A DNA stretch of 20,000 nucleotides from Emiliania huxleyi CCMP1516 (lineage: Eukaryota), in assembly GCF_000372725.1 (NCBI RefSeq), contig NW_005201912.1, positions 182,530-202,529 of the forward strand, in the 5' to 3' direction. Position numbers and translations under genes: made by a program. Shown piece by piece: positions 3,249 to 20,000 of this stretch (positions are counted from its first letter, which is position 1; each line of letters opens with the position of its first letter). Below the pieces are notes generated by a model. The model worked only from the letters and a program-made list of their open reading frames with translations, had not been told where the DNA came from and searched no databases.

Positions 3249-3542
3249 CTATATACGCCACCCTGCATTCTGAATCGTCACCTTGTTGTCGGCGTTGAAA
3301 GCGAGGCGCCTCAGCGCCCCCGCGGCCTGATACTTCTGCCTGGCCGTGCCGCCGCGAGCCAACGCGACCAGCGGCGCGATGCCACCCGCCTTCGCAATCG
3401 CCACCTTGTTGTCGGCGTTGTCAAACGCGAGCACCCACAACTCCCGCGCGGCCGCCTCCTTCTGCCCGTCCGAGCCGCCGCGCAGCTGCGCCACCCACGT
3501 TCGCACCTCTGAAGGAATGGAGGCGTCCACAGCCATCCCCAT
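3249..3542 (-). CDS. Armadillo-repeat protein (about two ARM repeats; possibly a fragment, start uncertain)
   Basis: WVAQLRGGSDGQKEAAARELWVLAFDNADNKVAIAKAGGIAPLVALARGGTARQKYQAAGALRRLAFNADNKVTIQNAG fits the ARM consensus. The frame stays open upstream to 4019 through Pro/Ser low-complexity sequence. Confidence 0.7.
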   Translation of the reverse strand: MGMAVDASIPSEVRTWVAQLRGGSDGQKEAAARELWVLAFDNADNKVAIAKAGGIAPLVALARGGTARQKYQAAGALRRLAFNADNKVTIQNAGWRI

Positions 3543-3783
3543 CGCCTCCGACACCGCTGCCTGCGCTCCGCCCTCCTTGCCGCCGCCCTCTCCCTCCTCC
3601 TGCGAGGAAGACACCGCTTCCGCCGGCGGCGGCGGCGAGGCCAGCGGCGGCGGCGGCGAGCCCAGCGGCGGCGGCGGCGGCGGAGGCGGCGAGCTATCCT
3701 GCTCGTGACGTCGGCTCCACAGACGCCAGCCAAGTTGGCGACGTGCGGCGGGGACCGTGGCCGCCGTTGCGACCGCCGCGGCG

Positions 3784-3919
3784 GGCAGCAGCGACGAGGA
3801 GGGCGACGACGAGGAGGGCGAGGGCGGCGGCGGCCCGCTCGTCGCTGCCTGCTGCAGCGGCGGTGGCGGCAGCAGCGACGAGGAGGGCGACGACGAGGAG
3901 GGCGAGGGCGGCGGCGGCC
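3784..3919. repeat. Exact 52-bp direct repeat (3784-3835 and 3868-3919)
   Basis: GGCAGCAGCGACGAGGAGGGCGACGACGAGGAGGGCGAGGGCGGCGGCGGCC occurs twice, 84 bp apart (in-frame spacing). Confidence 0.9.
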
Positions 3920-4179
3920 ACATTGTCAAAACGCCGTTCACAGACCCGCCGTTCACGTAAACGCACAACCCGGACCCATTACGCACAACCACAGACAGTC
4001 GAAAAGGGAGAGACAGCAATGACAGTCAGAAGTCAGCGCCGTGTACAGGCCTTGTTATTGAGAAGAAATACGTGCTGGCAGACTGTTTATCGAGAAAAGA
4101 AGAAATACTGCGTTGGCGCTGGCTAGTGCCATTTCACTGTGGCACAGCTCGCGTTACAAAACCTTGATCTTGACCATTT

Positions 4180-7013: not shown

Positions 7014-8977
7014 ATGGCTGTCGCGCTGGAGTCTGTCGACGCAGATCAAGACGACTCCAGCAGCGGCGAGATCGTCGGCGCAGAGGACGACGAGGCGGTC
7101 GAGGTCAGTGGTGACCGCCTCGACGATGTCGACACGCCTTCCAGTGGCGACAGTCCGACGTCACGTGGCGACAGCCCAACTTCGCAGCCGCAAACCTCCG
7201 AGGATGGCAGCGGCCTATGGCGGCTGCTGCTGACGGCATCCGCCTCAGCCGCGACCACCGCCGTCGGCATGGCGCTCCTCTTCACGCGTTGGATTCGGGA
7301 GGCGGCGCCGCCAGAGCTGCGGTACGCGCCGAGCGAGGAGAATGTCAAGCTCGTCATGGCGGTGCCGCTCCTGCTTCGGTCGTACATCCCGAACGTGCTC
7401 ACGCGGAACGGGCACCTCGCCTCCCTCTTTGGCTACATCAAGCTCCCCTCGTGGCGGCACCGCTGCGACCGCGAGCTAGTTCCGCTCTCCGACGGTGGCA
7501 CTGTCTCAGTCGAGTGGTCCCACCTCTAGATGCGGAAACGCGTACCACTCCCCTGTCTAGACGCAGTACTTTGCACCGTTGGCGCTCGGCTGCGGGCGTG
7601 CCACACATGCACACGCCCGTGCTCGGTTCATGGTTCCCGCTCTCGCCAAGGCTCTCGCCTTGGCTCATGGTTCCCGGACTCCAGCCTCCTTTGTGCGGCA
7701 AAGGTTCCCCTGCCGGCCGGCGGACGGCGTGCCGGTGATCCTGATGCTGCCGGGCATCAACAACGACGCCGCCTTCCCGTACGTGCAGCACGTGATGCGA
7801 CTCGTCCTCGCAGAAGGGCTCGGCACGCCCGCCGCGGTCAACTGGCGCGGGCTGGGCGGACTCCCCCTCAGCGCGGCGGGCGGAGCGACGCCAAAGGTCT
7901 ACTGCGGCCTCGGCGCGCCTGATCTGGCGGAGATCTTGAGCCACTTGCGGCGGCGGCTGCCCTCGTCCCCCCTCTACGCGGTCGGCTGGTCGATGGGCGG
8001 CTGCATCCTGGTGCGGCACATGGCAGAGGCGGGCGAGGGGTGCGAGCTGCGGGCGGCGATGGCCGTCTCGCCCGCGCTTGACGTGTCTGCGGTGCAGCGG
8101 TACTGGCAAGGCGCACACAGCGGGTCCGGCGGTGCAGGGCCCGCTGTGAGCTGGCGCGTCTCTTCACAGCGGCGCGGCTGTGAGCAGGCACGCCGGTCGG
8201 GCGCCTGTACGGCCTCGCGATCGGCTTCAAGTTGTGGCTGTACTTTCTTTCCCATCGGAGGGAGCTAGCGGGCGGTCCCGTCTCGGCGCGTGGCGCGGGT
8301 CTCCTCGGCGGTGTGTCTTGCATCGACCCTTCCCCGACTTCTCCCGGAGCCGTGTGTCTCTGCAGGTGTGGCGCGCCTTCCTGGGCGTCTTTCGCGGGTA
8401 CGAGGACGAGGTGTTTGCGCCGCTGTGGGGCCTGTCGGGCCACGAGGAGTACTGGCGCCGCTGCTCGGTCGGCGAGGAGCTGGTGCGGCGCGTCGCCAGG
8501 CGCGCGTCGCCGCCAGTAGCGGCGGCGGCGGCGGTGGCAGCAGCAGCAGAAAGTAGCAGAGGTCCGTAGCAGAGGTCTAGTGCACCCGAGTGCTCCGAGA
8601 AGACGCCGCGACACGACACCTCCACGACACCTCCTCGACACCTCCACGACACCTCCTCGACACTGACGGTGTGCTCCCCTAGGCCGCTGCTCGTGGTCCA
8701 CGCGCGCGATGACCCGGTGGTGCCCGTCTGGTCGCTGCCGCTCGCCGCGATGGCGTCGAACCCGCACATCGTGACGGCGATCACCCGGCACGGAGGGCAC
8801 ATCGGCTACACGGCGGGCGCGACGCCGCTGCTCGGCGCGTGGACCGACCGCGTCCTCGTGCACTACCTGCGCGCCATCCTCGCGAGGGAGGAGGAGCGGG
8901 AGGGGCGCGAGCAGGGGGAGATGCGCGGTAGCGGGTGCAGGAGATTGCCCACGCTGTGCGAGCACAGCAAGCTGTGA
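7014..8977 (+). CDS. Alpha/beta hydrolase, ABHD1/2/3-YheT-EHT1 family, 5 exons, C-terminal SKL
   Basis: Exons 7014-7516, 7704-8110, 8188-8285, 8366-8499, 8683-8977 (donors GT,GC,GC,GC). Family motifs: NGHLASL, RELVPLSDGGTVSVEW, ILMLPGI, NWRG, nucleophile elbow GWSMGG, acid HARDDPVV, His GGHIG. An upstream exon is possible because the ATG follows a pyrimidine tract and CAG. Confidence 0.9.
8614..8663. repeat. Intronic 11-bp tandem repeat CGACACCTCC(A/T)
   Basis: About 4.5 copies inside hydrolase intron 4. Confidence 0.9.
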
Positions 8978-9891
8978 GATCCGTCTTCAGAGCTAATTTA
9001 TGAAGCGTTTTCGACAGGGCCACCATGATTTCTTTTTCTGGGTCGTAAAATTCTTTCCCGCGATGTCCGCTCCGCTCGCCGCTCGCAACGCCATGGAAAA
9101 AAGAGAATTCATCGGACAAAATAAAATTGAGACCATGGGTGTGAGGTAAAATCACGCTACCAGCGCTTGGTCACATATCGGCCCCAAGGTCAGATCCTTC
9201 TACTCTGTGTTGATGACAACAGAACACTTGTCTACTCGCTGGAGCCGAACAGGAGGGCCCGGCGCGGCGCACAACCCCTGGTCAACTCACGGTCCACACC
9301 CCGTAGTATAGGGAGCGTAGAAGAAATTAAGCAAAGTCCAAAGAGGAGCCCTGCGCACGGCGGCACGCACGACTCCGCAGGAGAAGCCCCTCCCCAGACA
9401 AAACACAAGGGAGAGGTGGGTGGGTCACAGAAGACTGCGGCCGCCAGCGACTGAGTCATCACTGGGATGAGATCGGGAGATACGTCAGATCTGCCGAATA
9501 TATCCCGACTCGCTACAGCCGCCCACAGGAGCGCCGCCTCAACACGGGGTCTCGGCTCTATCGAGCCATGCTAGCTCCAGCCGCAGCCCCACCCGGCCGC
9601 CCGAGTGTGTTCCCGCAGGCAGAGAAGACCAATCCTGGGGGAAGCAACCGTCTTTCCCGAGACCCAGAGAGTGTATACACGTAGCCCCCTAGTCTCGGCG
9701 GTAGGATCTTGTATTTTTTCATAGAAACTCGGCGGTTGTGCCTCTTTATTTTATATTCGATCCCGCCGCGCAGCCGCGCGCCGCAGCCTCCCCCAGCCCG
9801 ACCGATTGCGCGATGGCCCTCGCCGCCCCGTCCGGAAAAGCGGAACTCCGCACACCACAGCCCAGCCCCACGCCCGCTCCTCACCCGTCTC

Positions 9892-10944
9892 TCACCGGTC
9901 CTGCCCGCCCGCGGCCGCACTCCGCGCGGGCGGCGGCCACGAGTCGGCGGCCGACATCTCGAGCAGCCGCGACGCCGCTCGCCGCTGCGCAAAGGCGGCG
10001 TCCTGCAGCCCGTTGAGCGCCGCCATCGAGACGCCCATGAGCCCGGTGGCGGACCACTCGGTCCCGTCCCCCATCCACCTGTCCACACGCGGGCAGGCGT
10101 GAGGAGGCGCCGTCCTCAGCCCCTCTGCTCGCGCCCCCCCCCAGGCACGTCGAGGTGAGCCCCGCAGACGCTCCGCCGAAGCCGCGCACAGACGTCGCGG
10201 CGGGCACCGGGTCGGCCTGAGCGTACGTGGACAGGCTGCCGAGGGAGGCTCGCATTCCCTCCTCGTGCATGCCGGAGAAGAGCTGCGGCAGCGGCACCGC
10301 CGACGAGAGGTGCAGCTCCTGCTCACAGGAAGAGGCGTGAAGAGACGCCGTCCACGTCCACGGGCTGGCGGCGAGAGGAGGGAGCTCCTTGCCCTGGTCG
10401 TACCACACGTCGATCAGCGTGATGAAGCGCCTCGCCGCGTTGTGGTCCTCGGGCGTGAGCGCAGGCACCCCCTCCACCGCGAGCAGCTCGTACCTGCTCG
10501 CAGCGCGCGACCCCTCCGCCTGTGAACAGCGTCTCCTCGCCCCCTCGGACCGCGAGCAAGCCCGCACCGCCTCGCCAGCTCGAGGTAGTCTGCGGCGCCG
10601 AGCGCGCTCCCGCAGAGCGTCGCGAAGCTCACCACGCACCCCACCCGGTTGGCGAGTGGCAGGTCGAGGCCGCGCCGCCCGCTCTCGCCGAGCGGCAGCC
10701 GCACGCGGCCCAGCGCGCCGCCACGCGCCTCGAAGGACCGCCGGATCGCCGCCGCCGCCGCCCCGTCCGCAGGCCAGTGGTAGCGCGCGCCGCCGGCGGC
10801 AGCCTCCGCGCCGTCGCCGCTGACGTCACCGCCGACGGCGCTGGCCTCGGCCTTGCGCCTCGTTCCTTGGTCCGCGCGGCGGGCGCGGTAGTCTGTGTCG
10901 CCCTCCGCCTGAGAGGGCGCCGTCAAAAGGGCGCGCGTACGAGT

Positions 10945-10977
<33 letters not shown>

Positions 10978-11707
10978 GTAGAGGCAGTGATTATGGTAGA
11001 GTGCTGGCGGCGGCAGCGAGGGCGGTGGCAGCGAGAGCGGTGGTGCGAGGCGGTTATCGAAGCGGTAGCGGTGGCGGCAGCGGTGGCGGCAGCGGTGGCG
11101 GACGCGCCTGCAGCTCGTGCACGACGACGCCGCGCCGCCCGAGCATCTCGCAAAAGCCGGGGATGTAGACGTGCCGGTTGAGCCCGTTCCAGTACAGCTC
11201 CTCCGGCCGCCGGTTTGATGTCGTCACGACGGCAGCACCGCCGCTCACGCAACCCTCGAGCAGGCGCGTGACAATGGCGGCGTCGGCGATGTCGGTGAGC
11301 GCCATCTCGTCAAGGCAGACGAGGGACGCCTCGGCGGCGAGGTCGGCGCCAATCTCAGGCGGCGCCCGTTTCTTGTGCATCTGTCGGTGCGCGTGCTCCA
11401 TCAGTTCGTGAAAGTGCAGCCGGCGGCAGCTGGCGCCCGCACCGCGGCAGCTCTGCAGCAGCAGGTCCATGAGCGCGGTCTTGCCGCTGCCGACCGGGCC
11501 GTGCAGGTACACGCCAGCGGGACCGGCGGCGGTGTGCGCGGTCGACACCCGTGCGTAGACCTTTTCGAGGTGGTCTAGCGCCGCAAGCTGCATCGGGTCC
11601 GGTCGGAAATAACCAGACGAGGTGGCGGCGTCGTAGCCGGCGCGCGGGCCGCCGGCGGAGTGGCAGGCGCGCACGAGGACGCGCAGGCCGTTGGTTGGCC
11701 GCAACAT
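9892..11707 (-). CDS. AFG1: AFG1/LACE1/ZapE-family ATPase, probably mitochondrial
   Basis: Exons 11707-11108, 10908-10568, 10493-10388, 10318-10149, 10078-9892 (the third intron is uncertain). Motifs: DPMQ, Walker A GVYLHGPVGSGKT, RRLHFHELM, Walker B LVCLDE..TDIADA, TSNRRPEELYWNGLNR, SFATLCGSALGAADY, ARRFITLIDVWYD, FAQRRAASRLLEM. The N-terminus is Arg-rich and presequence-like. Confidence 0.93.
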
Positions 11708-12343
11708 GTTTGCGAGGGGCTGTGCCACGCGGCGGCGTCGGGCGGGGACGGAGGGCGAGCGCGGGGAGTGCCGGCCAGGGCAGCCTGTGGCTCCTTCCAC
11801 TTTTTGCCCGCGCGGCAAAAGAGCAAAACAAACAAGAGAGAGAATTTTAGAACCCGTCCAACCCAGCCTCACGACACCTCGCACCAAAGAGGAGGCACCC
11901 TAAGGGGACCCCAGCGCCAACATCATCGGTGGAGGTAAAAGTGTTCGAAGAGAGAGTGGACCTGAGCAACGATATGACTTGGCGGCAAATGATCGCAGTG
12001 GGCGTCAGAAGAGTCGTCCTTGCGACAACAAAACAAATGCTAAAAATCTCTCTCTCTCCTTGCGCGAGGAGAGCTCGATAAACTCGAGGGGCCAAAATGT
12101 GCCGCCAGGAGGGCAGAGTTGCGCCGAAAGGCGGGAGAAGCCGCGAGAGCAAGGGATCGGCAGGCGGCGGCGGCGTCGCGGATGAGGCAGACGAGCGAGA
12201 GCGACGCGACAGAGGAGGAAGCGACAGGATGGAGAACGACGAGAGTGGGACGACCGCGAGGTGGCATGAAGGTTGCAGCGAGAATCGGCGAGGGACTGCG
12301 AAGGGAGATAGAAAGAGGCAGACGACCAAGGGTTAGGGTGGGC

Positions 12344-13399: not shown

Positions 13400-14264
13400 T
13401 CCTCCCTCGCCGCTGCGTGACCACTCGTGGGGCGACACCGCGATCGACTCGTTCGTCCACGCCCACACCTGTGCCACATGGCGCGGCCGAGGTCAGTGTA
13501 GGCCTCGCGGCCGTGCGCCGTCAGGAAGTTGTCCACCAACACACACTCGCCCTCCTCGAGCCGGAAGCGAGCCGCCGTCGGCGGTCTCGGCGGCCACAGC
13601 GCGGAGAAAATGCATCACGGTCTGCATGTCAAGGTCCGGCCTGAGCGATGTCGGCAGCGGGCGCACGGGCGGCGTTTCCTCGGTCTCGAGAGCCGCCAGC
13701 AGGGCGTCGGCGTCGGAGAAGGAGGAGATTCGGATCGCCGGCCTTTGGTTGGCGATAGGATTTGGAACGACGAACCGCTCGACGCGATCGGTCGGTGCTG
13801 ACGCCGCATGTTCCGACTGCTGTGCCTGCGTGCGATCGGTGCTGTTGTCGCTGAGCCGGTCGTAGTCCGGCGGCAGTTGGATGCGTTGCACGATCGAGAG
13901 GCGATCGATGTGCTTCCGGTGCTCTGCAGGCATGCGGCGGACGGCGGCGCGCAGGCTCGTGAGGAATGACTCACCCGGAGACGGCCTGCGCGCACAGAGC
14001 ATGAAGAAGTCTGGCGCCTCGTACGGCTCAACGCGATACTGCACGATGGTGTCAACGTGCGCTCATGTCAACGCCGGTGAGTATGGAGGCGCCAAGCTCC
14101 CGTGCGAGCTCAAAGGCCTTGCCGGGGTCGCCGGTACGCTCCGGGAGGCCGGATGGTGCGAGAGAGCGGAGCTGCAGGCCCCTGCTCGGAACACCATGTT
14201 TGCTGCACACGGCCAACACGGCGACGACCGCCACGATCGAAGACGTCCAGCAGATGGGCCGCAT
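13400..14264 (-). pseudogene. Frameshifted TauD/TfdA-like Fe(II)/2-oxoglutarate dioxygenase (3' end approximate)
   Basis: Four segments separated by three frame changes assemble the fold: a hydrophobic N-terminus from ATG 14264; HVD...PDFFMLCARRPSPGESFL (HxD at 14059-14051); ARFRLEEGECVLVDNFLTAHGREAYTDLGRAMW (13572-13474); then QVWAWTNE. Frame changes fall at about 14060, 13579 and 13472. Confidence 0.75.
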
Positions 14265-16636: not shown

Positions 16637-19600
16637 TCACACCCGCTCCGGCCCAGAGGCTCCTCCTGCTCCCCCCTCCTTGGTCGCCGTCCCATCGCTC
16701 GCGTCGCCCGCGCTCGACCCCCCACTGCTCCGGCATGGTGGTGACCTCTCGGATGAGCGCCTCCACGCCCGCATCAGCGCCGCGTGGTCGGTGGCGGGGG
16801 CCTGGCCGGTCGGCGTCTGCACTCCCCCGCCGGGACTACGCCCCTCCTGGTCGGGAGTCGGCGAGAAGGAGAGCCTCCACGATCGCACCAGCGCTGCGTG
16901 GTCGGTGACCACCAAGCCGAGCTCGACGTTGGGTCCGGGTGGGCCGGCGCGCGCCCTGTCGGCGTCGCCTCTGCCGTACGCGTGGATCGCCCGGATCGCG
17001 TCCGCTGCCACCGCCTCCATCTTTGCACCGTCCGCGTCGTCGAGCTCGCCCTTGGCCGACTCGCCGCTGTCGTCCGTGGTGTGCGAGCACGTGGTGCTGC
17101 GCGTCTCCGCAGGCGAGCACTTCGCACCGTCCGCTCCAGCCTCGCCGCCGGCCTCCGCCCTCGCCGGCTCTGCCTCGCTGCGCCTGTCCGAGGGGGGCCT
17201 CTTCAAGGCCGGCAGGCGCCGCATCACCGTCGGGGTCCACCGCGAGCCGCTCGAGGCGGTGCTCCTCCGGCTCAGCGACCTCTCAATCTTCTTCTGCACT
17301 CGCTGCACGTCGTGCCCGCTCTCCGCCTGCGTAGCGGCAAATCTCGCGGTCAGCCGCGGAGACTGCCGGGTTCCCCTCTCGGGTGGTCGAATCTCTCTCT
17401 CTCTCTCTCCGCCTGCGCGACGGCCTCGTCCAGGATCTGCGGGTCCAGATCGATGGCGCGCTCAACGAGGTGGATCAGCTCGCCAAACAAGTCCCGGCGC
17501 GGGTCGAAGCACCCTCCAAAGACGCGTGTCGGAAGCCGCGAGAGGAGCCGCTTCCGGAGCGGCAGCTGCGCGAGCCGCTGCGCCGACATGCGCAACTTCG
17601 GCGGGAAGATCTCGCCCCGCTTCGCGCCGCGGATCTCGTTGAGCACGAGCTGCAGCGTCTGGGCGCGCCGCTCCTCGCTGCCCACTTGACACAGCGCCGC
17701 CTCGGCTGCCGCGGCGGGCGAGGACTGCCACGGCACCGCCTGCGCGCGCCGCTTGAGCTCCAGGGCGTACAGCTCCGCGTACAACCCGAGAATGGGCAGC
17801 ACGATCGAGAGGTAGTCGCCCTCGTCCGTCACGTCGCCCTCAAACACGCGCAGCACCGACATCAGCCACTCGCTGTCGAGCTCGCCGAGGCGCCTGTGGA
17901 GAGAGAGGGCGCGGCGGCGGCGACAGTGAGGGCGGCGGGGGCGAGGCGGCAGCGGCGGGGCCGGCAGCGGCGAGGTGGCGGCGAGGTGGCGGCGAGGTGG
18001 CGGCGTTGCAACCTGCAGTCGTCCTCTGTGGTCGCGCACCACATCGTGCCTGTGCCCTTGCGCAGCACGTGGCACAGTTGCTCACAGCGGCACCACATCC
18101 GGCGCTGGTACGACTGCACGTTGCACACCTCGCCCGTGTCCGCGTGAATCGTGGTCGGCGCGCAAATCACAAAGGCGTGTGCAGCCGCGCAGTAACAGGC
18201 GATGGTCTGCACGGCCAGCTGCTTGAGCAGGGGCTTGCTCTGGGGGATCGAGGCCAGGTCCACCCACACCTGCACGTTGGCCTCCTCCCAGCCCGTGTCG
18301 GCGATGACACGCCGCAGCGACGCGGCCATCACTCTGTACTGCACTCCGAGCGGGTCGGGCGTGCCAAAGGAGAGCCACTGGTGCGAGAAGAAGACGACGT
18401 GTTTGTCGGCGAGCTGCCGCGGCGAGTCGTAAAAGAGCAGCTGGCCCTCGGCACGCAGCGCCTCGTGCTCGCGCAGTGACCCCATCCGCAGAAAGGCGCG
18501 CGCCGGCAGCAGCACGCACGGGTGGTCGAGCCGGTGTACGCCGCGGATCGCCTCGAGCACCTGCTTCGCCGCATTCTCGGGTGACCTCGGGTGATCTCGG
18601 GTGACCTCGGGTGACCTCGGGTGACCCCCTTTGACCGCGTATGACCTCGGGTGACCTCGGGTGGACATATCGGTCGATCTCGGGTCATCTCGCGCGCCTG
18701 CTTGGCCGCGATCTCGCGCCGCTTGAAGTTGCGCACGGAGAGGCTCGCGCGGTAGGTGAGCGCCACGAAGAGGAGGAGGAGCGCGCCGAAGACGGAGGTG
18801 AGAAGGATAATGAGGCGGCGCTGCTGCCGCCGCTCCGCCTCACGCTCCCGCTCGCGCGCGAGCAGGGCGTCTTCGGGCGGCGTGGCGGACCTAGGCATCC
18901 ATGCAGTGACGGGTGAACGGCTGTGGTGGAGCGAGGGCATCCTCGGGCTGGCTTGGCGGACCCGTCTCGAAAGAGGAGGGGCACGGTCTCGACCGCTTCC
19001 CAGTCCACCGCCGCAGCTTCGCCGGGCAGTATCTTGCAGATCCGCGGGGCCAGCCTCTTGCACGAAGCTGGCTCGGGAGAGGCTGGCTCGGTCGAGCAAT
19101 CAGCCGTCTCCGTATCAGTAACCAGCCTCCGGCGGGGCCAATCAGCCGTCTCCGTAAAAAAGCGGGAGAAGGTGAAGATGAGCCCCGAAGCGTTCCTGTC
19201 CAGCCGGGCGTCGAAGGCGACAGGCCCGGATGCGCCGTCGAAGCTCACCTGCCAGGGCGTGTCATGGACGTGTCATGGACGTGTCATGGGCGTGTCAGTG
19301 TCATGGACCCGTCCCGCAGCGGGAGCGCGCACCCTTGCGAGCGAGCGAAGGACGTCTGTGCCCCGGTGAGGGTTGTCGCTCGCGCGCATGCCCATGGCGA
19401 GCCCGGCGACGGCGTCGTACGCGAAGGCGGCGTACTGCGTGGGCGGCGACGAGAAGACGGAGGGCGGGACGTCGAAGATGCCTCCGGCGCCGGCGCGGGT
19501 GCAATCGTCGGGTCCGAGGCTGCTCCACAGCCTGGCAAGCCGCTGGAAGCCGAAGGCGGGCACCGGGTTGGCCTCAAAGGAGAGCCTGTGCGACGTGTCT

Positions 19601-20000
19601 CGGGTGTCTCAGGCGTGTCTCGGGCCGCCTTGGCGGGGAGGCGAGCGGCGAGGAGGGAGCTGGCGGGGAGGGGGGCGGGCGAGCAGTCGAGCGCGGGGAG
19701 TGGAGTGAGGCGGAGGGGTGAAGGAGAGAGGCGGGAGCTGTGCGCACATGCCGGCCATCAGGCGCGTCGCCTCTGGGTTGGTGCCTAGGTTGGCGGCGCT
19801 GCCGGAGCCCTCGATGATGATCCACACAAAGTTGTCTGCCAGCAGGCCCTCGTCCTCTGCGCTGCTTAGCAGCGGAAGCAGGTCGACCTCGAAGCTCAGC
19901 GAGACGATGATGTTCACTCCGATGTCCCTCATCATCTGCACCGCCTCGCGGATCTCCGCCGCGTTGCTCTCCGTCCAGCTGCCGCTGAACTGCGTCAGCC
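16637..20000 (-). CDS. Single-pass receptor: ANF-receptor/Venus-flytrap-like ectodomain + TM + HET-like cytoplasmic domain (5' end outside the window)
   Basis: Exons 20000-19748, 19585-19333, 19248-18962, 18890-18698, 18560-18013, 17893-17413, 17326-16637 (donors GT,GT,GT,GC,GT,GC) join in frame. Ectodomain motifs: GVNIIV..AEDEGLLADNFVWI, YAAFAYDAV, VSFDGASGPVAFD. TM: LIILLTSVFGALLLLFVALTY. HET-like motifs: VFFSHQW, VWVDLASIPQ, YQRRMWCRCEQ. Confidence 0.85.
18576..18663. repeat. Intronic 10-bp tandem repeat CTCGGGTGAC
   Basis: About 7 copies in the receptor intron 18697-18561. Confidence 0.9.
19258..19309. repeat. Intronic 11-bp tandem repeat CGTGTCATGGA
   Basis: About 4 copies in the receptor intron 19332-19249. 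Confidence 0.9.

Follow-up and report, generated by a model that had tools for sequence, protein, structure and literature searches.

A two-flytrap receptor with a HET/TIR-like cytoplasmic domain in Emiliania huxleyi and its relatives in marine plankton

The 20,000-nucleotide stretch of the Emiliania huxleyi CCMP1516 genome analyzed here (contig NW_005201912.1; hereafter the window) ends in a gene, encoded on the minus strand at 16637-20000, whose product combines in a single protein two tandem Venus-flytrap domains, one membrane helix and a cytoplasmic domain of the HET branch, a remote relative of fungal HET and TIR proteins. This architecture is real and apparently undescribed; every part of it is of a known kind. 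We see about an even chance that the protein is a ligand-regulated, dimeric NAD-cleaving receptor enzyme that serves ordinary environmental signalling.

The window holds a seven-exon stretch of this GC-rich gene (GC3 0.88), with four GT-AG and two GC-AG introns and a spliced frame that stays open over 900 codons to a stop at 16639-16637. The stretch is present in 16 public runs, six of which are recorded as RNA, and the joints were checked in four RNA runs from four studies; the transcripts come from one culture transcriptome and three metatranscriptome studies. All six introns are spliced out in the RNA contigs (four joints in 4/4 runs, two in 3/4), in agreement with the splicing proposed in an earlier sequence-only reading. 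Two contigs span the splice joints in succession: X15 record 8 covers 20000 to 16462 and X11 record 1 covers 19817 to 16466. The RNA contigs are assemblies rather than reads and therefore indicate neither level nor strand. The window covers only the last 900 codons of a protein of ~1,560 amino acids, the ~660 upstream codons being known from transcript-derived proteins and not from DNA. Such proteins, of 1562-1570 amino acids, include the entire window model at 98-99% identity and are ~660 residues longer; the 1562-residue P0247 aligns to the window model from its residue 663, and the full-length protein opens with a short hydrophobic, signal-peptide-like leader. Codons 22-900 correspond to EMIHUDRAFT_439778 of E. 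huxleyi CCMP1516 (879/879 identical), and EMIHUDRAFT_444258 is 99.7% identical to the same codons; both records begin within the ectodomain and carry the sole name 'receptor ligand binding region domain-containing protein'. The reference annotation (P0244, P0245, P0246) consists of N-terminally truncated models, with the first flytrap split off as the partial gene EMIHUDRAFT_459284. The features of the gene within the window are as follows.

19748-20000, minus strand: coding exon for the central part of the second Venus-flytrap domain; the gene runs past the window end with the signal peptide, the first flytrap and the start of the second (ANF_receptor E 9.5e-4 on the exon alone; RNA cover and joint)
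19586-19747, minus strand: GT-AG intron, 162 nt (joint in 4/4 RNA runs)
19333-19585, minus strand: coding exon, flytrap domain with YAAFAYDAV (RNA and sequence)
19249-19332, minus strand: GT-AG intron, 84 nt, with an 11-bp tandem repeat inside (joint in 4/4 RNA runs)
18962-19248, minus strand: coding exon, flytrap end and extracellular linker (RNA, sequence and model)
18891-18961, minus strand: GT-AG intron, 71 nt, with 9 identical letters at its two ends (joint in 3/4 RNA runs)
18698-18890, minus strand: coding exon, single membrane helix and basic juxtamembrane stretch (RNA, hydropathy and sequence)
18752-18814, minus strand: transmembrane helix (hydropathy 2.9, the sole such segment)
18561-18697, minus strand: GC-AG intron, 137 nt, largely a 10-bp tandem repeat (joint in 4/4 RNA runs)
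18405-18560, minus strand: N-terminal extension that the cytoplasmic domain has in this family (its conserved Glu, Arg and Asp map to the predicted dimer interface)
17845-18404, minus strand: HET/TIR-like alpha/beta core, model residues 55-201, interrupted by the intron at 18012-17894 (model, structural matches, weak Pfam HET in relatives)
18081-18083, minus strand: invariant Glu, predicted catalytic (123/123 sequences; aligned with the invariant alpha-C Glu of TIR_2)
17894-18012, minus strand: GT-AG intron, 119 nt (joint in 4/4 RNA runs)
17413-17893, minus strand: coding exon, the last part of the core and then a largely helical C-terminal extension with IFPP and LFGELI motifs common to relatives (RNA, sequence and model)
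17327-17412, minus strand: GC-AG intron, 86 nt, with 13 identical letters at its two ends (joint in 3/4 RNA runs)
16637-17326, minus strand: last coding exon, a low-complexity Ala/Gly/Ser/Arg-rich tail, predicted disordered, and the stop (predicted local distance difference test, pLDDT, < 50; composition; RNA contigs extend to ~16462)

The ectodomain had been read as one ANF_receptor domain; the family assignment stands, and the full protein contains two such flytraps in tandem rather than one. ANF_receptor (PF01094) is matched twice in the full protein (258 bits against a Pfam cut-off of 25.4, E 1.5e-76), and no other Pfam family is found there even at E 10. In the window, AEDEGLLADNFVWI, YAAFAYDAV and SFDGASGPVAFD are encoded on the minus strand at 19860-19819, 19434-19408 and 19245-19210, respectively. 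Among solved sequences, the nearest are the flytraps of mGluR6, 8, 4 and 7 (E ~1e-22), and the model of the second flytrap matches the ectodomains of mGluR, GABA-B, plant GLR and natriuretic peptide receptors (Foldseek, E down to 2.8e-14). Aligned to mGluR6 and mGluR8, the first flytrap retains GAASS, SYSSTS, DEYGASG and WLGSDA, presumably the sites of the Ser, Thr, Tyr and Asp by which class C receptors hold the amino-acid part of their ligands; judging from the sequence, an amino acid is our best guess for the ligand of this domain. The second flytrap deviates from the amino-acid-gripping pattern because it has GAASRTN, SYYSSA, DEWAVG and WIFIEGS instead. Between the window model and P0002, the ectodomain is 94.6% identical and the cytoplasmic domain 99.6%. 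The Pro/Ser-rich linker that leads from the second flytrap to the membrane helix contains in-frame indels between the variants P0001 and P0002, and 15 nt of it (19064-19078) are missing in X13 and X15.

P0001 and P0002 each contain exactly one hydrophobic segment, consistent with the proposal of one transmembrane helix followed by basic residues, and Pfam scans gave no match to 7tm_3, the seven-helix domain of class C G protein-coupled receptors; the topology would accordingly read as type-I single-pass. In the P0001 model, the membrane helix continues unbroken into the first helix of the cytoplasmic domain, forming one 48-residue helix (551-598). Among 196 relatives with at least 60 residues ahead of the cytoplasmic domain, 166 have exactly one hydrophobic helix, located within 90 residues of the domain, 11 have such a helix and others, and 19 have none in range; the helix-to-domain distance is 36-41 residues for the middle half of the relatives.

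Self-association of the cytoplasmic domain is predicted. Two copies of P0001 575-935 were modelled as a homodimer with a score of 0.54, compared to 0.00 for the best control, with at least 95% of contacts in agreement between runs and a partner pLDDT of at least 66. In calibration, this mark was reached by 21/30 microbial homodimers and 0/23 single chains (17/29 and 0/30, respectively, for eukaryotes) but by just 1/7 cases without an older solved relative, and the P0001 job, unlike the calibration, included NAD. In the predicted interface (P0001 602-605, 624, 627-628, 630, 634, 636, 699-703 and 706), the N-terminal extension meets the loop that follows core strand 2. The three charged residues conserved in the extension (E35 in 119/119 sequences, R38 in 103/119 and D47 in 101/120; residues 624, 627 and 636 of P0001) all lie within this interface, and 5/16 interface residues are at least 70% conserved, which is no higher than the domain average (59/234).

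The cytoplasmic domain contains three motif blocks of the HET type, FxSHQW (18392-18375, with SHQW at 18386-18375), WxDxxxIPQ (WVDLASIPQ, 18266-18240) and RMWCRxE (RMWCRCE, 18101-18081), all on the minus strand, where every motif quoted in the sequence-only reading was located, together with the membrane helix and the Glu codon. The blocks are invariant and collinear with TIR_2. The core is modelled with a pLDDT of 94.8, structural matches span model residues 54/55-201, and the flavodoxin-like core aligns to TIR NADases and nucleoside 2-deoxyribosyltransferases over ~90-110 residues; the identities in the structural matches differ little, being 10-14% for TIRs and 4-10% for GT-B. The earlier assignment to Pfam HET (PF06985, gathering cut-off 22.5 bits) holds for the conserved blocks but not for the profile, against which the window protein yields no score even at E 10. 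The cytoplasmic exons alone have no Pfam match, and the tail scores with no Pfam TIR model. Among relatives, weak Pfam HET matches were obtained in 4/9, 4/6, 3/39, 0/47 (at E 0.001) and 15/69, the last with two above the cut-off; HET is the only sequence family that recurs among the matches of relatives, one of which (P0224) covers positions 4-140 of the 146 in the profile. The structural-neighbour evidence from the Atlas rests on another E. huxleyi relative, P0004, which matches a fungal HET cluster with a TM of 0.57 over 173 residues, below the bar at which the tool names a family; structural neighbours carry Ank, TPR and LRR repeats. Direct profile comparisons with eight TIR_2 domains did not reach significance (probability 0.6 and 1.2), and the global mode gave no alignment. 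With the cytoplasmic domain as the query, sequence and profile searches of PDB returned nothing meaningful, Foldseek against PDB and viral models found no match at E 0.001, and PADLOC and NCBIfam gave none below E 0.02. In one subfamily (P0004, P0006-P0009 and relatives in diatoms), the core is followed by an insertion rich in Cys and His (CCR..H....CDR), which may be a metal site and which the window protein lacks.

Residues F59, S61, Q63, W64, Q109, R156, W158 and E162 are kept in 123/123 relatives, which are 30-57% identical to the query. W158 and E162 lie on model helix 157-170 (W-x-x-x-E, with the Glu in helix alpha-C), and E162 aligns to the invariant Glu of TIR_2, albeit at a non-significant alignment score. 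As far as sequence conservation can indicate, the complete retention of polar residues around a TIR-type Glu is an active-site pattern. Of the 30 substitutions listed from RNA contigs, 22 in frame were counted and 8 outside the frame were excluded: the 10 within the folded cytoplasmic region are synonymous without exception, compared to 6/12 elsewhere in the frame.

The window gene belongs to a large family. A six-sequence profile retrieved 3,143, 1,651 and 471 clusters (50% identity) at E 0.001, 1e-10 and 1e-30, respectively, 150 of which were listed; named members come from E. huxleyi, the diatoms Thalassiosira, Cyclotella and Stephanocyclus, and a Gymnodinium transcriptome. Pattern scans found 19 matches and no relatives in viral contigs, and 18 matches in prokaryote genomes, including two weak 30-residue alignments judged to be due to chance; Pfam HET was found in 0/401 genomes of one bacterial phylum, an uninformative result given that the control was silent too. 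Among 164 relatives scanned with Pfam, many of them fragments, the ectodomains include 18 of the flytrap type (two of these being the window gene), 11 type-2 solute-binding and 7 dCache domains, along with 2 LRR and 4 lectin, propeller or beta-helix domains (LRR, PAN, laminin-G and FG-GAP types); P0240, for example, is an FG-GAP receptor with a TIR/HET-like tail. The layout of the window gene recurs in 16 further flytrap-bearing relatives. In the same set, one relative has a response-regulator receiver, one has protein kinase domains and four have EF-hands: in P0201 and P0235 the cytoplasmic domain lies behind the receiver or alongside the kinase domains, and in three of the EF-hand proteins (P0095, P0099, P0110, P0239) the EF-hands are placed between the matched pieces of this domain, hinting at Ca2+ feedback. 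In one cluster of structural neighbours, HNOB is present in 99% of the 89 members, possibly a nitric oxide sensor without a cyclase. On a midpoint-rooted FastTree of 59 labelled domains, from which unlabelled proteins were excluded, flytrap versus other requires 8 changes, whereas 500 shuffles gave from 9 to a mean of 15. The flytraps are scattered over several clades, a pattern suggesting that sensors have been swapped repeatedly.

Flytrap, solute-binding, Cache, receiver and HNOB modules usually feed cyclases, kinases and other everyday outputs. It is mainly because of this company that we prefer a second-messenger role to a death switch. Under the proposed mechanism, the two extracellular flytraps are likely to bind a small molecule that would re-orient the receptor dimer; the membrane helix, predicted to continue rigidly into the cytoplasmic domain, would transmit the movement. 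Two copies of that domain are predicted to contact each other via the N-terminal extension and the loop behind core strand 2, and the paired loops may reshape the pocket around the Glu. The resulting dimeric HET/TIR-like enzyme is predicted to cleave NAD+ or a similar nucleotide. Its product would be ADP-ribose or else a cyclic isomer, perhaps with an effect on Ca2+, and would serve as a routine second messenger. Such a protein would work like a receptor guanylyl cyclase with another output module and would not be mainly a death switch. By extension, haptophytes, diatoms and probably dinoflagellates may possess, alongside receptor kinases and cyclases, an entire further class of receptor enzymes in which interchangeable small-molecule sensors (flytrap, solute-binding and Cache domains, together with receiver and HNOB modules) switch a HET/TIR-like NADase that makes an ADP-ribose-type messenger, a generalization to which we give somewhat less than an even chance. 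If this is true, HET domains would be everyday signalling enzymes and not only death effectors.

The sequence-only reading favoured a Toll-like receptor analogue; its flytrap receptor with a HET/TIR-like tail is supported, whereas the immune or death role now appears unlikely and ranks as a lesser rival. Under that alternative, the flytraps would detect a metabolite originating from a pathogen or from damage, and the HET-like domain would kill the cell by depleting NAD+ or recruiting partners. Fungal HET domains are reported to suffice for cell death and to be remote relatives of TIR (PMC10197012, PMC10890737, PMC4986451), and in E. coli a TIR from a green alga is reported to produce 3'cADPR and to exhaust NAD+ (10.64898/2026.04.20.719644). 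The type-I layout with a TIR-like tail resembles that of Toll-like and IL-1 receptors, LRR, PAN, laminin-G or FG-GAP ectodomains occur in 6/164 relatives, and the Ank, TPR and LRR repeats of structural neighbours fit as well. Nevertheless, small-molecule sensors prevail in the family (36 versus 6), the ectodomain identity between variants speaks against hypervariability, no defence-like neighbours were detected among the 36 frames scanned, and the transcripts come from a culture transcriptome and three metatranscriptome studies, although contigs give no levels.

Less likely still, the domain could be an N-glycosidase or transferase that acts on another substrate, as deoxyribosyltransferases, DNPH1 and MilB do, or a nucleotide-sugar-binding half of a glycosyltransferase, in which case the messenger would not be derived from NAD. 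The recurrence of HET as the sole sequence family argues against this possibility, as do the structural identities, higher for TIRs than for GT-B by a small gap. A slightly more doubtful alternative is a non-catalytic scaffold that pairs with other HET-like proteins, like animal Toll-like receptor adaptors. A scaffold has been proposed for fungal HET-NLRs in the accessible part of PMC4986451, a homodimer is predicted, and many soluble haptophyte proteins share the fold, but the active-site pattern in 123 divergent sequences argues against it. Two adjacent genes, or an assembly or prediction artefact, are barely credible: a contig across two genes is not necessarily one transcript, but a single open frame runs through six spliced joints, contradicting the notion that ectodomain and HET-like exons belong to separate genes, the same fused protein appears in independent transcript and genome records, and the layout recurs in 16 other relatives.

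Among known systems, receptor guanylyl cyclases, such as natriuretic peptide receptors, whose structures are among the fold matches of the window ectodomain, share with the window protein a flytrap ectodomain, one membrane helix and a helical link to a predicted dimeric cytoplasmic domain. The window protein differs in having two tandem flytraps and a HET/TIR-like output, and neither a kinase-homology nor a cyclase domain was detected in it (Pfam, E 10). Toll-like and IL-1 receptors are type-I membrane proteins with a cytoplasmic TIR-like fold, a layout that the window protein probably shares, and some TLR TIRs are stated, in the accessible part of 10.64898/2026.04.20.719644, to make cyclic ADP-ribose (cADPR). 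However, their ectodomains consist of LRR or Ig domains rather than two flytraps, and, compared to their tails, the window domain has a 54-residue N-terminal extension, insertions and a HET-branch affinity. Class C receptors (mGluR, CaSR, GABA-B) are the closest solved relatives of both flytraps but have seven membrane helices, not one. Fungal HET proteins (HET-E/D/R, TOL, PIN-C, HET-6, BH) and their algal homologues contain the same three motif blocks in the same order. The characterized ones are described as intracellular, with an N-terminal effector and NLR or lectin-fold partners, whereas the HET-like domain of the window protein sits at the C-terminus, preceded by an extracellular sensor and a membrane helix, and falls below the Pfam threshold. 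TIR NADases (SARM1, AbTir and the Chlamydomonas TIR that produces 3'cADPR) and nucleoside 2-deoxyribosyltransferases have a flavodoxin-like core that aligns to that of the window domain, with the Glu likewise in the helix that follows strand 3.

Dyrka et al. 2014 (PMC4986451) described homologues of HET from stramenopiles and Haptophyceae and matched the three HET blocks to TIR elements as far as helix alpha-C. As far as the accessible text of each source goes, the killing mechanism of HET domains is stated to be unknown (PMC10890737), no HET-protein biochemistry or structure is listed (PMC12881547), establishing HET enzymatic activity is called for (PMC10197012), and the clade of the Chlamydomonas TIR that makes 3'cADPR includes haptophyte TIRs, with HET domains unmentioned (10.64898/2026.04.20.719644). 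The receptor family is not covered in the accessible parts of 10.64898/2026.09.21.753143, 10.64898/2026.10.11.758280 and PMC7075850, and no account of flytrap-membrane-HET receptors or of these gene identifiers was found in a literature search that left most subscription journals and supplements outside, in line with the earlier impression that the architecture is uncharacterized. Chemical sensing by bloom-forming algae is poorly mapped, and the window gene provides a tangible, expressed example: a receptor of a family with hundreds of clusters, the output domain of which escapes standard annotation. With a tractable flytrap and one invariant Glu, it offers a ligand-gated system for a direct test of HET-domain biochemistry and may bring to light a pathway of NAD-based messengers in the chief primary producers of the sea.

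Elsewhere in the window, 5/36 scanned frames have a family match; the frames at 3252-4025, 7561-8265, 9884-11899 and 13496-14062 match the armadillo repeat, alpha/beta hydrolase, AFG1 ATPase and TauD families, which suggests no defence cluster. The P0001 tail holds a repeated 12-residue unit. Tandem repeats of 10-11 bp make up most of three of the six introns (repeats at 18576-18663, 19258-19297 and 17967-18005), and the first of these repeats is also matched by RNA contigs from many other loci. Finally, 9 and 13 identical letters flank the joints of two introns (within 18883-18961 and 17319-17417), one of them GC-AG, as if these introns came from short duplications or from insertions with target repeats.
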